A stretch of DNA of 42,322 nt, taken from the UHGV virus genome UHGV-0136707. The stretch is one strand, 5' to 3'. Under the pieces are notes generated by a model. That model had not been told where the DNA came from. It did not search any database and was given only the letters and a program-made list of their open reading frames with translations. The DNA is from a virus. Below, in pieces: positions 31,421 to 36,027 of the stretch (position 1 is the first letter of the stretch; the number at the start of each line of letters is the position of its first letter). A program made the position numbers and the translations under genes.

Positions 31421-31584
31421 CACTGATCCTTCGAGGCTGGTTTAAATATCGGCCATACCAATGTTACAGCTACTGCTACCAACGCCCCGTCGGATAAAAC
31501 CGACAGGATTGTGCTGGTGAAATCCACCAGCACAGATAGCACGAGAAAAACCAAAGCCAGAATTAGACGTGCTTTTATAACCAT
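31420..31584 (-). CDS. tciB: 54-aa hydrophobic peptide (tciB-like)
   Basis: Hand-translated MVIKARLILALVFLVLSVLVDFTSTILSVLSDGALVAVAVTLVWPIFKPASKDQ. Its ATG overlaps the tciA stop by 1 nt. Confidence 0.4.
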   Translation of the reverse strand: MVIKARLILALVFLVLSVLVDFTSTILSVLSDGALVAVAVTLVWPIFKPASKDQ

Positions 31585-32009
31585 CAGATATACTGTTCCA
31601 GTGGCAATTGAAGAGCCTGGGCAATTTTCTTCAATTGCTCCTGCTCTTCTGCCCCAATGCCATCCTGGTCAGCAATATCAATGCATAGGCACAGAACATC
31701 TACCGCATCATTAGTTCCAGACACGTCAGCCAGTTCACGTAAAGCCTGGGCATTCGCTCGGCGCGGCGAGGCTTCATATTGAGCGCGAATATTGGCGCTC
31801 ATCTGGGCAATTTCACCGGAGAACGGCGCAAAGGCAGGAAGTGCTGCAATGGTTTTTTCCAATACTGCAATTTCTTTCGCATCGCAGGTGCCGTCAGAGT
31901 ATGCAATGGAATATGCGCCCCAGACAGTCGCTTCCACCGCATCACGGTTTTCCATCTTCTTGACTCCGCCAGCCGCTTTGCGGAATTTCTTTTTGAGAAT
32001 GCCGAGCAT
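31584..32009 (-). CDS. tciA: TerB-like protein
   Basis: 141-aa ORF with TerB-type features (DG..D..E). First of three translationally coupled genes between the tRNA region and tRNA-CAU/ban. Confidence 0.7.
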   Translation of the reverse strand: MLGILKKKFRKAAGGVKKMENRDAVEATVWGAYSIAYSDGTCDAKEIAVLEKTIAALPAFAPFSGEIAQMSANIRAQYEASPRRANAQALRELADVSGTNDAVDVLCLCIDIADQDGIGAEEQEQLKKIAQALQLPLEQYI

Positions 32010-32189
32010 TTATTAACCTCATTACTGGTTGGGAAATAAGGTTGCGGTGCCGGGTGCCTCCCGGTGTCCTTTGGCTGGTTATCCACCGTGGACGGGGAAA
32101 TAAGGAGAAATAATGGACAGATATAACCATTTCCCCGCGTGCGCTTAGCCGCATTCACCGCAACGGAAAGAGCATTCCTGGTGGACCTG

Positions 32190-32935
32190 TAGATTGGGAT
32201 ATGAACCCGTTACAGGAGAATGCTCTTACCTGTTACGTGCTCCGTTTCGTGGAGCTAACGGCGGGTGATCGGGCCGCACCAGACTGGACTTATTTCAGCG
32301 TTATGCTCATGCCAGAGAATCAAACTGTGATGGTCGGTGCTGAACTCCGACACAGGGTTGTAGCAAGCCCCGCAAAGCGCGCACTACTGTAGTTGCGGCA
32401 CATCAGCCTGTGCATTCACCACAATGTTGAGAACACTGGTTGTCACGCTGCAACGCAACATTTATTCGTAGATTGGGATATGACCCCGTTACGCCAGTGT
32501 TCTCAACGTTGTAGTGCCGGTTACGGTTCCGGCCAGGCCTCTTCCTCAACGGGGTGTTCTCCATACGGACTACCGTTTATTGGTCGTTCCTGCGGTTTAT
32601 GTTGTGAAGCCAGATGCTTATCTTCTGGTTGCTTCAAAGAGCTGCACTTCATCACAACGGTAAGAGAACTCGATGCATTTAAGCCAAGCCCCATAAGGGA
32701 GAATGCCCTTACCTGTTGTGTTGTGATGACCGGTGCTGATCTCCGGCTTGCGGTTATTTCAGACTCTCACGGGCGTTTAATTGCCCCGCCGAACAGCTCT
32801 TTTCCGCAATAGCTGCAATGTCTTTCGCGCATCAGCCTGCGCATTCATCACAACGGTAAGGGTACTTCGTAGGGATTCGAACCCTCTGCCAAGCACGGCG
32901 ATCTCCGACGTCGCAAAATACCCTTACCTGTTGTG
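32190..32935. repeat. tRNA-like degenerate repeat region inside the tRNA-ban operon
   Basis: Direct repeats GTAGATTGGGATATGA(A/C)CCCGTTAC at about 32196 and 32468; CCCTTACCTGTTGTG-like copies at about 32226, 32707, 32921 (and 33364); CATCAGCCTG(T/C)GCATTCA(C/T)CACAA at 32402 and 32829; a T-arm-like GGGTTCGAATCCC on the minus strand at about 32865. Confidence 0.5.
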
Positions 32936-32936
32936 T

Positions 32937-33012
32937 TGGTGCCGATTAACGGACTCGAACCGCTGACATCCTGCTTACAAGGCAGGCGCTCTACCAACTG
33001 AGCTAAACCGGC
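32937..33012 (-). tRNA. tRNA-Thr (UGU)
   Basis: Hand-folded 76-nt cloverleaf: acceptor GCCGGTT/AATCGGC, anticodon arm CCTGC-CTTGTAA-GCAGG, T-loop GGTTCGAGTCC, 3' CCA encoded. Confidence 0.85.
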
Positions 33013-33014
33013 AT

Positions 33015-33090
33015 TGGCGATGGCGGATGGATTTGAACCATCGACCCGTTGATTAACAGTCAACCGCTCTAACCGCTGAGCTACACCATC
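33015..33090 (-). tRNA. tRNA-Asn (GUU)
   Basis: Hand-folded 76-nt cloverleaf: acceptor GATGGTG/CGCCATC, anticodon arm GTTGA-CTGTTAA-TCAAC, T-arm GATGG-TTCAAAT-CCATC, 3' GCCA encoded. Separated from tRNA-Thr by 2 nt. Confidence 0.85.
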
Positions 33091-33744
33091 ACTTGCCGGG
33101 TACGTCTCCGGCGAGGGCTTCCACCTCCGTATGCTTTTCGGCGCACCGCGCCCTGGCTGCAATTCGGTAACAGGGGATGCACAACCCTGGCTTCCAGCGT
33201 GATTAGCGCCTTCAGCATGACGGGATATACCCGTAAATTCGTGGAACTGTACCCAAAGTGCTGTTAAGCACCGCTGTTACGCTGAAAAGAAGACGCAACA
33301 GGAAAGGACGCTGACCAACAGATGGCCCCTTCTCGTTCATCTGGTTAATCACACCAGCGCCCTTACCTGTTGTGCCTCCCCGTTCCCTAATACACAGACG
33401 GGGACACTCTGCGGTCGATTTTTTGACGGGGGACGACTCATACCCCGTGGCGTCTGGCTTCTTAGGCCGCTACCATCATCAGATCATCGTTTGCATTTAC
33501 TTTAATGGTCAGTTTCTAAACCGCCGCAAAGTCGCTAACCATGACGAAAACCCTGAAAAAAACGCCCACCCGAAGATGGGCAAACTGGAAGCTCGTAACG
33601 CACTTCGGCGTTGCCACTTAGGCGCATGGTCAACCTGGCAACTCGGTGGTTTGTCTGGGAGGACTAGGCCCAGCCATGCTTACCGCCGCGCCTGTCGCGG
33701 CTAACAGCTAAATCGCTCTATAAATCACGATTCATTGAGGCGAT

Positions 33745-33772
33745 ATTACACTAATAAATTTATTAGAGCAAT
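33745..33772. promoter_or_regulatory. bipartite overlapping C1 operator upstream of the tRNA-tci-ban operon
   Basis: Perfect 17/17 operator in reverse orientation (33756-33772) overlapping a 15/17 forward copy (33745-33761). Sits at the dmt stop, upstream of the tRNA/ban transcription unit; P1 ban is known to be C1-controlled. Confidence 0.7.
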
Positions 33773-36027
33773 ATACCTAAAACGTCATGAGCAACACCTC
33801 GAGTGTCCCCCTTACAAGACACAGAACGTCTGGCAAAAAGAGGCTCCACTCTGAAGCCATTGTCATGATAAAGCTCTCTGATGTTTGGCGCGCCACTGTT
33901 AGTAATGAGAACCTTTGCACCTCGGCGATGAGCATCCGTCAACAGAGACACCAGGCGTTTTTGCTCTTCAAACTTAAAGTCATGACCGGAATAGTTCGTG
34001 AATCCCTCTGTATTTGGAAGCGGTTCATACGGCGGATCACAGAAGATGACATCTCCTTCTCCGGCAGCTTCAATCACCGCAGCAAAATCACCACATACAA
34101 ACTCAGAACACCCTTCCGCACCGAGGAAGGCTTCCATCTCCTGTAATGGGAAATACGGAGTTTTATACTTCCCATAACCGACATTGAACTCACCGGCCTG
34201 GTTGTAACGCGTCAATCCGTTAAAACAATGTCGGTTCAGGAACAAAAACGCCGCTGCGCGATGTAAATCATCATAGACTTGTTTGTTAAACGCATTCCGT
34301 ACTGCCAGGTATCCTTCCTGTGTGTTGTAGTCCTGGAAAAACCGACGCGCCAGTGTGATAAGTGAATGCGCCTCGCGTTGCAGAGTCTTGTAAAAGTTAA
34401 TCAGGTCAGCATTCACATCATTTAGCAGATTTTCCTGGTATCCGGCATTCGTGAAGACAGCTCCGCCACCGACAAAAGGTTCGATCAGGCGCTTCCCTTC
34501 TGGCAAATAGCGAAAGATTTGTTCCAGAACACCAAATTTTCCACCAGCCCATTTGAATATGGACCGTTCGAATTCTGCCGCTGGTTTAACTTTTCGCTCT
34601 TTTGTTTCACGCCCTTCATTCTGCCGACATGCAGCCTTGGTAATCCGCTCGCCAATCCAGCGCATTACTGGTATCGCCATACTATTGCCGATCGCTTTGT
34701 AACGCGGTCCGTCAGCTGCAAGCATCGCGGCCTCTTCTTCGCTTAAATCTGGATAGTGATTGCGCAGATATGCCAGTTCATCTGAATTAACTTTTTTACG
34801 CTTTTCCGTAGGGATCAACGTATGTCCATCAGGAAAACCTTGAAGTCTCTCACATTCGACAGGGGTAAGACGGCGGACAGCTACTTCTTCGTTTCTTACT
34901 TCATAGCAAACAGCAGTTGGATTTTGAGCCATTAGAGATGGTGAAGTATTCTTAGTTGCTGCATGTTGTGTACCACTCATACGCTCAGGAAAAGCCAATG
35001 TAACAAGATGCTCATGGCTTTCTTGCTCACGCGCCCGCAATGTACCATGCCCTTCTGACCAAAAACCTGCTCCAGTGCTGCTAAAAACGGCAAGGTCAGT
35101 GGCATCTTTAAAGTCTCTTGCCTTTACTGTCGATGCGGTTTCATCGTCAATATATTCCCCAAATGCCGCCATCCTGAAACCGTTTACGGCTTTCGTCGAT
35201 TTCATATCGGGGGACATGCCAGCGTGTAGGCATGGATTTAGGCTTTCGCCACTGATTGCAGCGCCATTTGCAGTAATGGCGGAAGCGATTTCCTTCTTTT
35301 TTCGGCTCGGCGCAATATTCCGGCGCACGCCTTCGAACTCAAAAAGTACCGTTGCGGGATCGAGGTCTGTTCGAGCACTTGCGACAACAAACACGCGTCG
35401 GCGTCGTTGTGCCACTCCGAAGTATTGGGCATCAAGGATTCTCCAGGCCACCTTTCGCTGCGGTCCATAAATACAACCACACTGCGGCCACTTTGGAGTA
35501 TGGCAACCGGTTTTGACATCCCACCGCCAGAACGTGTTACTTTTTCGTGATTCAGGTCGATCACCAGGTTCGAATGGCGCATCTTCTCCAGCCAATCCGG
35601 CAAGGAAACATCCGAACGCGTTGTCTGCTGATGACAGGACTCCTGGGACATTTTCCCAGACGATAACTGTCGGTTTGAGGAAGGACTCAGACCGTTTGTC
35701 GTCAATTGCATTTGCAAGCTCCACATACTTCAAAGTTAGCGCGCCGCGTTCATCATCAAGCCCACCACGTAAGCCCGCGATACTGAATGCCTGACAAGGC
35801 GTACCCCCGACGAGCACATCAGGGGCTTCAATTTCTCCGGTCTGGACTTTTTGGGCGAGTTTTGTCATGTCGCCAAGGTTCGCGACATGGGGCCAGCGGT
35901 GCGCAAGAACGGCAGATGGAAAAGACTCGATTTCAGCAAACCACGCCGGACGCATACCCAACGGTTCCCAGGCAATACTCGCGGCTTCAATTCCACTGCA
36001 AACAGATCCATAGCACAGCTCTTTCAC
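33763..36027 (-). CDS. dmt: Dmt, bifunctional DNA methyltransferase (C5-cytosine and N6-adenine)
   Basis: 754-aa ORF starting with GTG. N-terminal half has C5-MTase motifs (..[12 protein letters not shown].. with catalytic PC, and ENV); C-terminal half has an N6-MTase DPPY motif (FCDPPYEP). Confidence 0.88.

Follow-up and report, generated by a model that had tools for sequence, protein, structure and literature searches.

Our analysis of the 42,322-nucleotide (nt) stretch of virus genome UHGV-0136707 (hereafter the window) identified an array of structured RNA modules on the minus strand at positions 32040-32936, between the gene for a threonine transfer RNA (tRNA-Thr) and tciA. A two-part element, which we call H-M, is repeated there in tandem as four diverged copies, and a fifth H hairpin (H0) is located upstream of the tRNA genes, so that the order on the minus strand is H0, tRNA-Asn, tRNA-Thr, H1-M1, H2-M2, X, H3-M3, S, H4-M4, and tciA. 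What we describe is a strand-specific, covarying, and modular RNA that is co-oriented with tRNA genes, is embedded in an operon, and has no signals of its own. The array very probably belongs to a structured RNA family under selection, and the region is part of a widespread phage RNA family that is known only in part through STnc100 and PasD. Our favored interpretation, which we hold to be probable, is that the interval is a non-coding module array carried on a read-through transcript from the promoter Pban and cut into stable RNAs. That these discrete processed RNAs are themselves the functional product is a more tentative proposal, with the balance tilting slightly against it.

The original prediction had called this interval a non-coding, tRNA-like repeat region, and its interpretation is partly supported, as our results agree with a non-coding structured RNA and disagree with decayed tRNA genes. 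As it had stated, there is no convincing open reading frame (ORF) on the minus strand between 32040 and 32936: the longest encode 57, 53, and 39 amino acids (aa), none of them matches Pfam or PHROGs, and the interval is not protein-coding on the operon strand. The repeats that it had listed are real (between 31900 and 33500 there are 12 families of direct repeats and 9 inverted pairs), and the 906-nt minus-strand RNA has a folding energy of -341.8 kcal/mol, compared with -292.3 +/- 6.2 kcal/mol for dinucleotide shuffles (z = -7.95), in agreement with structured RNA modules that appear to be selected for base pairing. The junction motif TTGYGRTGAA has five exact occurrences in the 42-kb window, four of which lie on the minus strand at 32154, 32415, 32648, and 32844.

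Each H module is a hairpin of ~20 base pairs (bp), with the base CACAAC-A-GG / CC-GUUGUG and an upper stem of ~12 more pairs, and encloses a variable insert of 31-102 nt. The M module starts at the GUUGUG of H and comprises a 9-bp closing helix termed P1 (GUUGUGGUG/CACCACAAC), a 5' hairpin (P2), a variable insert (~30-130 nt), and a 3' hairpin (P3); these helix names are unrelated to the phages P1 and P2. Two types of M can be told apart: type A is marked by GCGCAGGCUGAUGCGC and GCCGGAGAUCAGCACCGGC, and type B by GCGGCUAAGCGCACGCGG and CACCGGGAGGCACCCGGCACC. In type A, which is the commoner, the P2 and P3 loops (GCUGA/UCAGC) are complementary and could kiss. Within the window, M1 and M3 are of type A, M4 is of type B, and M2 is a minimal version.

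Both parts of the element show covariation. Among 72 distinct arm pairs of the H stem, 92.3% of the cells are paired, and changes on both sides occur in 12 of the 20 pairs (98 cells), as exemplified by GGAGAGAGCA/UGCUCUCCCC, GGUAAGCCAAAUCG/CGAUUUGGCUUUCC, and the UU/AA that replaces GG/CC in H3. None of 500 shuffles matched the observed values on any measure, and slid-partner controls paired in 35-60%. Type A M, represented by 36 distinct sequences, is 96.5% paired with double changes in 8 of 24 pairs; no shuffle out of 500 reached the observed value on four of five measures, and a single one did so on further pair types. The complementarity between the P2 and P3 loops holds in 95.6% of the cells, and a kissing-loop pairing in type A M is suggestive. 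H0 to H4 fold with z values of -4.3 to -8.0, and the minimum-energy folds of M1, M3, and M4 each yield the closing helix P1 together with hairpins P2 and P3.

Since the arms in these alignments had been chosen by maximizing pairing, RNAalifold was also run on 16 untrimmed natural units, including H1-M1 of the window, as a check for bias. All four helices, namely H, P1, P2, and P3, were recovered de novo in this run, and compensatory changes were seen in 9 of the 31 pairs. Covariance models built from the trimmed alignments (R1 and R2) are poor detectors, as the length of the inserts causes them to break real units up into a 5' and a 3' half; their significant matches are confined to 32324-32854 on the minus strand. 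A scan of genome contigs with a 17-mer served as a negative control for the hairpin score, its matches being mostly due to chance, from unrelated phyla, and of little value for judging host range. Among the 120 loci listed from other phyla, six chance matches reached a pairing score of 16, none of them with a CACAACAGG arm, and a CACAACAGG-type H arm was present in 3 of the 120.

The structure is specific to one strand, given that G.U pairs account for 130 of 1439 H-stem cells (9%) and become mismatches if read from the opposite strand. In viral loci, a tRNA gene is found within 600 nt of 33 of 90 elements, and in all 33 cases it lies on the same strand as the element. At least 12 different tRNA sets occur near elements, including Arg-UCU, Met/Ile-CAU, Thr-UGU, Asn-GUU, Tyr-GUA, and Ser-GCU. 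The next downstream ORF is co-oriented with the element in 61 of 82 cases.

The H-M junction (CCGTTGYGRTGAATGCR) is present in at least 120 viral contigs of IMG/VR. The flanks of the junction-bearing contigs follow a near-universal plan with conserved arms (CACAACAGGTAAGAGCATTG … CAGTGCTCTTTCCGTTGTGGTGAATGCGCAGGCTGATGCGC … AAGCCGGAGATCAGCACCGGCCACCACAAC), and the two inserts between these arms are wholly different from contig to contig. The scaffold helices appear to be under selection, and the inserts, such as the GGGUUCGAAUCCC of H1, behave as interchangeable cargo. Lambda-type H was identified in 122 phage records, most commonly of Klebsiella (55) and Escherichia (37), and also of Salmonella and some Enterobacter, Erwinia, and Shigella, and of 5426 complete E. 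coli genomes, 1338 contain matches to parts of the interval. Beneath the full-length matches to the interval in E. coli genomes and RefSeq P1-like plasmids, the Prokaryotic Genome Annotation Pipeline (PGAP) has annotated no feature. Neither H, type A M, nor the spacer module S has an Rfam match at gathering thresholds (15 loci) or at E<=1 on lambda. Our searches of the literature on the lambda late leader, tRNA-linked phage RNAs, and the P1 transcriptome retrieved no description of the H-M element, which may be included in a 2023 catalogue of ~10,000 candidate viral RNAs (PMC10690425). Other known elements were considered and rejected, namely integron attC sites, the box C/D kink-turn, the hammerhead core, Y RNA (YrlA), retron msr/msd, and the put RNAs of HK022, as their consensus words did not fit, a partner protein was missing, or there was no Rfam match.

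Whole units are gained or lost at repeated junctions. P1 lacks M1 and H2, and P7 and Ro157c2YLVW lack H1 and M1; in one contig (L066) tRNA-Thr is joined straight to H4-M4, and another contig lacks H3-M3-S. Single modules of the window recur at 87-100% identity in unrelated phages. M1, for example, is located in mEp460 and Shiga toxin 2 (Stx2) phages in the leftward early leader, beside the repressor gene and in sense orientation. A 66-nt cargo (AAUUAAGCGAAU[A/G]CCGGAAGCAGAACCGG…GGCGUCAUCGCCGCCCAGC) is identical at 65 of 66 positions between lambda (L129 470-545) and P7 (L005 ~1640-1545, minus strand), with the closing helix of M around it in the former and an H-type hairpin around it in the latter.

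Other arrangements of the modules were observed in these phages. Klebsiella phage IME207 (L008 ~2900-2010, minus strand) carries a self-contained cassette, antisense within the tail-gene cluster, with a TTGACA-N17-TAGATT promoter-like site followed by H, an M1 that is 100% identical to that of the window, a hairpin, tRNA-Ser(GCU), tRNA-Arg(UCU), and a terminator. In Ro157c2YLVW (L003 1963-2091 and 2408-2494), a 42-aa ORF with a GGAG Shine-Dalgarno sequence lies between X and H3, and a tRNA-Tyr lies between tRNA-Asn and tRNA-Thr. In P7 and D6 (L005/L004 1638-1724), an unusual tRNA-Ser(UGA) is located between an M and an H.

In the window, all the modules are encoded on the minus strand. The first hairpin, H0 (33294-33374; -43.2 kcal/mol, z -5.63; repeat family D3), is located upstream of tRNA-Asn, has the 5' arm CACAACAGGUAAGGGCGCUG and the 3' arm CAGCGUCCUUUCCUGUUGCG, and explains the fourth copy of GCCCTTACCTGTTGTG that the earlier repeat list had placed upstream of the tRNAs. 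H1 (32849-32935; z -4.98; part of alignment A1) is a long hairpin with the arms CACAAC-A-GGUAAGGGUA / UACCCUUACC-GUUGUG that begins 2 nt past the 3' end of tRNA-Thr; its variable insert contains the T-arm-like GGGUUCGAAUCCC at 32884-32872, and relatives of 87-89% identity are found in the non-P1 contigs L020 and L073. M1 (32720-32854; type A; part of the RNAalifold alignment A4) is formed by P1 GUUGUGAUG/CAUCACAAC, P2 GCGCA-GGCUGA-UGCGC, an insert, and P3 GCCGG-AGAUCAGCA-CCGGU. It is matched by model R2 with E values of 2e-8 and 3e-3, and copies with 98-100% identity are present in mEp460, Stx2 phages, and IME207.

The second unit consists of H2 (32653-32720; ACAAC-A-GGUAAGGGCAUUCUC… / …GAGUUCUCUUACC-GUUGUG; z -4.26; model R1 E 0.001; part of A1) and the minimal 58-nt M2 (32601-32658; GUUGUGAUGAAG … CCAGAAGAUAAGCAUCUGG CUUCACAAC). 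M2 is matched by R2 across the whole model (26.9 bits, E 1.3e-4), and when folded alone it is no better than shuffles (z -0.70). The spacer module X (32517-32600), a copy of which with 98% identity is present in the non-P1 contigs L124 and L049, ends in an orphan P3-like hairpin, CCGGAACCGUAACCGG; the next strand, CACUACAAC (32516-32508), was assigned to H3. This latter module (32420-32516; inverted repeat I1) is a variant without the bulged A, with UU/AA for GG/CC (ACAAC-GUUGAGAACACUGG / CCAGUGUUCUCAAC-AUUGUG) and with GGGGUCAUAUCCC in its insert. It folds at -48.1 kcal/mol (z -8.03), and its compensatory UA pairs fall in columns 12/41 of A1. M3 (32324-32425; type A; R2 E 1e-6 and 7e-3) is formed by P1 AUUGUGGUG/CAUCACAGU, P2 GCACA-GGCUGA-UGUGC, and P3 GUCGG-AGUUCAGCA-CCGAC, differs from M1 by compensatory changes in both P2 and P3, and has copies of 87-98% identity in contigs L087, L105, and L086.

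The spacer module S (32241-32323) has two hairpins, GGUGCGG…CCGCC and CUCCACGAAACGGAG. We identified 15 distinct versions of S across contigs, in which the first hairpin covaries by eye (GCGG/CCGC, CCAG/CUGG, CUGG/CCAG, and GCAUAAC/GUUAUGC). H4 (32159-32237; z -5.42; part of A1) has the arms CGUAAC-A-GGUAAGAGCAUUC / GAAUGCUCUUUCC-GUUGCG and an insert with GGGUUCAUAUCCC. Finally, M4 (32041-32164; type B; GUUGCGGUGAAUGCGGCUAAGCGCACGCGG … CACCGGGAGGCACCCGG CACCGCAAC; z -3.86) is similar to STnc100/PasD and ends 31 nt before the start codon of tciA. The only Rfam signal in the interval comes from this module, which matches positions 31-147 of the 206-position STnc100 model (RF02076) with 39.2 bits (cut-off 47) and an E value of 3e-6.

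The 1.2-kb locus shares 99.5% identity with the P1-like phage JL22 and ~99% with P1 apart from an indel, and its gene order is that annotated in P1. According to the P1 record, the operon on the minus strand of the window comprises dmt, the C1-controlled promoter Pban, a 'dicF-like region', tRNA-Asn, tRNA-Thr, the interval 32040-32936, tciA, tciB, tciC, a tRNA with a CAU anticodon, and ban. ARAGORN identified only three tRNAs in the whole window, which are tRNA-Asn(GUU) (33015-33090, minus strand; Rfam tRNA 72.3 bits), tRNA-Thr(UGU) (32937-33012, minus strand; Rfam tRNA 72.9 bits), and tRNA-Met. The first two are genuine tRNAs, and tRNA-Asn would be transcribed together with the module array. 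The CAU-anticodon tRNA, at 31234-31309, is called tRNA-Met by ARAGORN and in the JL22 record and tRNA-Ile2 (ileX-like) in the P1 record; an ileX-like tRNA with a CAU anticodon is read as Ile once it is lysidine-modified.

No sigma-70-like promoter was found on either strand of 31200-33900, and no terminator-like site was found on the minus strand within the array; the type A modules have neither a promoter nor a terminator of their own. Downstream of Pban, at 33563-33582 on the minus strand (within 33546-33647), there is a strong terminator-like hairpin, GCCCAUCUUCGGGUGGGC, with seven consecutive U after it. It lies inside the 'dicF-like region' of the P1 record, ~190 nt upstream of H0, and the Rfam DicF model gave no match at E<=10. 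With such a hairpin between Pban and H0, Pban might produce a short terminated RNA, by analogy with lambda PR', which makes the 6S RNA ahead of the lambda H-M copy. In an hfq mutant, the levels of tciA, tciB/C, trnA, and ban of P1vir are reported to be altered (10.64898/2025.12.28.696737), a result compatible with both a trans and a cis role of the array. The defense protein OLD of phage P2 is reported to cleave host tRNAs, including Thr(UGU), and a phage tRNA-Thr(UGU) to rescue sensitive phages in part (bioRxiv 10.64898/2026.07.10.737580). The tRNA-Thr(UGU) of P1 (window 32937-33012) adjoins the array, and its position hints at an anti-defense setting for the entire locus.

Taking into account this context, we propose that the array would be transcribed by read-through from Pban, past the terminator-like hairpin at 33582-33563. 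The transcript would contain, from Pban onwards, the short terminated leader, H0, tRNA-Asn, tRNA-Thr, the array, tciABC, the tRNA, and ban. From this polycistronic RNA the modules would be cut into stable small RNAs, like the neighboring tRNAs, with the H stems as putative RNase III sites enclosing the inserts as the stalks of ribosomal RNA (rRNA) enclose mature RNAs. At ~20 bp, these stems are about as long as substrates of RNase III are expected to be. The original prediction had also mentioned tRNA-like processing structures, a notion that would be consistent with the strict co-orientation with tRNA genes. Since M4 appears homologous to the structured 5' domain of STnc100/PasD, a trans action like that of PasD is possible for at least some of the modules.

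Several points weigh against this proposal. The transcription, cleavage, and stability of the array are all predicted from sequence, and our searches found no expression or processing data for the interval. M1 to M3 taken alone barely beat shuffles (z -0.7 to -1.9), and the support for the loop-loop pairing comes from one evolutionary event, as double compensation is seen in one allele only (L074/L102, GUCGA/UCGAC). Alignments A1 and A2 were trimmed, with the inserts replaced by an AAAA linker and the arms picked by maximal pairing, a procedure biased toward the proposed helices, and many contigs are related, so that our counts are counts of non-independent events. The score of M4 is under the Rfam cut-off, and M4 has neither the seed nor the Rho-independent terminator of STnc100/PasD (model positions 148-206). 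CRISPR interference (CRISPRi) directed against plp and upl, the two genes annotated over the interval in P1, caused no plating defect, both being dispensable (PMC10695390). Finally, a conserved scaffold with variable inserts fits a role in cis or in protein binding equally well, as families of small RNAs (sRNAs) usually conserve the seed. A role in cis, within the untranslated leader, has nearly the same likelihood as one of the processed RNAs.

Under the cis alternative, the modules would keep the stretch of tRNAs and array structured, thereby blocking the loading of Rho or recruiting Nus factors through a boxA-like 3' arm, and the inserts would be tolerated filler; in a variant, they would be processing or stability signals for the downstream tciABC-ban message. 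It fits with this alternative that the elements are found in untranslated leaders with a mostly co-oriented downstream gene (the 61 of 82 cases above), that the scaffold is conserved and the insert is not, and that type A modules come without their own promoter or terminator. The elements also often follow directly after terminators, as observed for tR' of lambda, the isrJ terminator in L030, at least seven other cases, and the hairpin 33582-33563 of the window, which is followed by H0. It should be noted that the simple detector used for terminators upstream of H, which found 7 in 76 contexts, is too strict, and several more were recognized by eye. Using as reference the boxA read in the rrnH leader (UGCUCUUUAACAA), the boxA core YGCUCUU(U/A) was detected in 44 of 72 distinct H 3' arms. 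However, 27 of the 72 arms lack the word and are paired nonetheless, in the window it is present in H4 only (~32174-32165), and it sits inside a helix; boxA, the NusB/NusE antitermination site with the consensus YGCUCUU(U/A)A, acts single-stranded and early in untranslated operons. The word in the H arms may be either a coincidence or a link to Nus-factor antitermination. Two other points count against a leader with filler inserts: individual inserts, such as that of M1 and the lambda/P7 cargo, show 98-100% conservation between unrelated phages, which argues against filler, and the type B scaffold is shared by PasD, a stable sRNA that acts in trans (PMC8550237). Weighing both sides, we consider a cis leader, including its variant, a possible explanation that is on the whole unlikely to be the full answer.

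A different reading, in which the interval encodes on the plus strand the 63-aa Upl and a putative lipoprotein, Plp, follows the annotation of P1. The upl ORF (32201-32392, plus strand) has a borderline codon usage (+0.16 per codon), at the lower edge of the real genes of the window, and codon usage is indecisive as a coding test for 63 codons. It matches PHROGs 14500 and 7444, and both matches derive from the same P1-like DNA. The plp-like ORF of the window (139 aa with a TTG start; 32393-32812, plus strand) has a codon score of -0.08, as spurious ORFs do, and no Pfam or PHROG match. Both genes are annotated in the P1 and JL22 records; no CDS (coding sequence) is annotated at the place of plp in P7 or D6, and the P7 record has no annotation in the interval; the ORFs are intact only where the DNA is near-identical, and the length and ends of plp vary, from 125 aa in P1, where it overlaps tRNA-Thr, to 110 aa in JL22 and 139 aa in the window. 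The ATG of upl (32201, plus strand) lies inside the insert of H4, in a part that is deleted in Ro157c2YLVW, and the middle of upl is antisense to S. All the differences seen among the P1-like copies of upl are non-synonymous. At the S-H junction, for which 15 versions are available, the upl frame is open in the 3 P1-like ones, and in 8 of the 12 non-P1-like ones it contains stops or frameshifts just past the nucleotides conserved in the RNA.

Moreover, PGAP does not call upl or plp in RefSeq P1-like plasmids, no promoter-like site was found on the plus strand of 31200-33900, and both genes are non-essential by CRISPRi (PMC10695390). We conclude that upl is probably not a gene, we judge the plp-like ORF to be spurious, and the protein-coding reading as a whole is very improbable. 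The original prediction had found no support for either gene, which stands, and we found no protein-level conservation of upl or plp in relatives; its search, however, had been on the minus strand, and P1 annotates both genes on the plus strand, antisense to the operon. ORFs have also been called over the same modules elsewhere, as in orf-64 of lambda (J02459 44621-44815) and gp36/gp37 of mEp460 (L006 2378-2931, antisense strand). These calls are probably annotation artifacts, like upl and plp.

The scaffolds could alternatively act as DNA, as homology 'linkers' or cruciforms for the recombinational shuffling of cassettes such as tRNAs and morons, with an incidental RNA structure. This would account for modules that are gained, lost, and swapped exactly at repeated junctions, for the tRNA genes and the small ORF inserted at module boundaries, and for the occurrence of the same cargo in different clamps. 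Compensatory changes, however, destroy homology and preserve structure, the 9% of G.U pairs and the co-orientation with tRNA genes in 33 of 33 cases point to one strand, and recombination at repeats is an expected by-product that need not be a function. We regard this explanation as very improbable.

The original prediction mainly read the units as decayed tRNA genes; such pseudogenes would be remnants of a larger array of phage tRNAs. The T-arm-like GGGTTCGAATCCC is indeed present at 32884-32872 (minus strand), between GGTAAGGG (32928-32921) and CCCTTACC (32862-32855), and as predicted there is no standard cloverleaf: ARAGORN relaxed to -ps80 adds no tRNA, and the Rfam tRNA model has no match in the interval at E<=10. 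The canonical T-loop hairpin AGGGUUCGAAUCCCU in the insert of H1 speaks for a tRNA origin, as do the extra tRNAs, real or odd, that relatives carry where modules meet, namely tRNA-Ser(UGA) in P7 and D6 and tRNA-Tyr in Ro157c2YLVW. Of 74 distinct H inserts, 7 contain a T-arm-like hairpin, defined by a UUCRANY loop on a stem of 4 bp or more; the expectation from shuffles is 0.15, the reverse strand has none, and this excess also favors a tRNA origin. The remaining ~90% of the inserts have no T-arm, and the inserts of H3 and H4 have UCAUAU-type loops in place of the T-loop. The T arm of a tRNA has a 5-bp stem with a UUCRANY loop and adjoins a 7-bp acceptor stem; in H1, ACGAAG separates the T-arm-like hairpin (AGGG-UUCGAAU-CCCU) from the long H stem, and this hairpin is not formed in the minimum-energy fold. 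The conserved, covarying parts of the element are a long hairpin and a multi-helix domain that differ from tRNA arms, form no cloverleaf, and recur in phages with different inserts, and compensatory pairing across dozens of phages is not expected of pseudogenes. The GGGUUCGAAUCCC of H1 is therefore a real yet minority feature of the inserts; the family is not defined by it, and its scaffold is no tRNA. The decayed-tRNA interpretation is already largely refuted, and we find it extremely improbable.

The reading that we favor is the one in which the array is a set of RNA modules carried on the Pban transcript and cut into stable RNAs. A broader proposal, which is speculative and which we consider doubtful in its full extent, is that temperate phages of Enterobacterales, including lambda and P1, would share a 'clamp-and-cargo' RNA system. 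Two conserved scaffolds, a hairpin of ~20 bp and a kissing-loop domain, would display swappable cargos of 30-130 nt, some of them tRNA-like; the scaffolds would be expressed together with phage tRNAs and would pass from phage to phage as cassettes. The cargos would be the active parts, for instance as decoys or regulators against tRNA-targeting defenses or host sRNAs, and the 5' domain of STnc100/PasD would be a specialized offshoot. Phage tRNAs have been linked to the escape from tRNA-cleaving defenses such as P2 OLD (bioRxiv 10.64898/2026.07.10.737580), and the strict pairing of the modules with phage tRNA genes suggests that the two have a role in common.

Despite the long study of both phages, this stretch is annotated in P1 as two hypothetical genes (upl and plp), and its lambda counterpart is annotated in part as orf-64. 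If the modules do form a selected RNA family, upl, plp, and the similar gene calls of mEp460 and other phages should become RNA features, and a class of structured RNA for which Rfam has no family would be present in many E. coli, Klebsiella, and Salmonella prophages of the lambdoid and P1-like kinds. In addition, the origin of the virulence-associated PasD/STnc100 would become clearer, as a shared scaffold that gained a seed and a terminator.

Among known RNAs, the structured non-tRNAs that are co-transcribed with tRNAs offer a tentative comparison. RtT RNA (the tyrT-distal repeats, RF00391) and the 'species 1 and 2' of the T4 tRNA cluster contain tRNA-like fragments and are released by tRNA-type processing. 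Unlike the array, the RtT repeats are not known to be built as a clamp with a variable insert, and RtT has no Rfam match in the interval (E<=10). The boxA/RNase III stalks of rRNA operons resemble H in that long helices surround an enclosed RNA in untranslated operons that contain tRNAs, and differ from it in that the boxA-like word of H is base-paired and there is no boxB or boxC arrangement. GOLLD and ROOL RNAs are often located beside tRNA genes, and we know of no function for them. They are, like the array, phage- or prophage-borne structured non-coding RNAs (PMC12286853), an analogy of setting only, as they are much larger, belong to other bacterial lineages, and have no Rfam match here.

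The late leader of lambda is another counterpart. It contains one H-M copy at ~44,790-44,930, right after tR' (the end of the 6S RNA) and upstream of gene S, overlapping the end of orf-64; the searches that we made found no function described for this copy. Its H, 99% identical to the common H allele, precedes an M-like domain with the closing helix GUUGUGCUG/CAGCACAAC. As in the locus of the window, it is a non-coding leader located behind a short terminated RNA, and the 66-nt cargo recurs in the corresponding interval of P7. In contrast to the window, lambda has a single copy and no adjacent tRNA genes.

Finally, PasD (PasD1 and PasD2) and STnc100, from Salmonella and pathogenic E. coli, are described as related prophage sRNAs of common origin (bioRxiv 10.64898/2026.05.13.724894). 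PasD1 of enteropathogenic E. coli is a 173-nt, Hfq-dependent sRNA validated by Northern blot, and the Hfq-dependent accumulation of PasD and its mRNA targets have been described by Northern blot and RIL-seq, in which interacting RNAs are ligated and sequenced (PMC8550237). M4 differs from these sRNAs in that it runs straight into the ribosome-binding site of tciA with no terminator-like site, and the H-M unit differs in being present as tandem repeats within an operon, compared with a stand-alone gene. In E. coli E2348/69 (NC_011601; L130 762-1136), PasD1 is located directly downstream of a DUF3927 gene and upstream of a holin gene. M4 shares with STnc100 the closing helix GGUG…CACC, the GGUGAAU junction, the internal hairpins, and the CCGGGAGGCACCCGG / GGGAGGCACCC hairpin, and folding 32165-32041 to minimum energy produces these helices too. 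PasD1 has the same GGUGAAU…GGGAGGC…CACC scaffold at its start and scores 37.7 bits on STnc100, also below the cut-off. Both M4 and PasD1 are phage-borne, and PasD1 adjoins a tciB-like (DUF3927) gene as M4 adjoins tciA-tciB.

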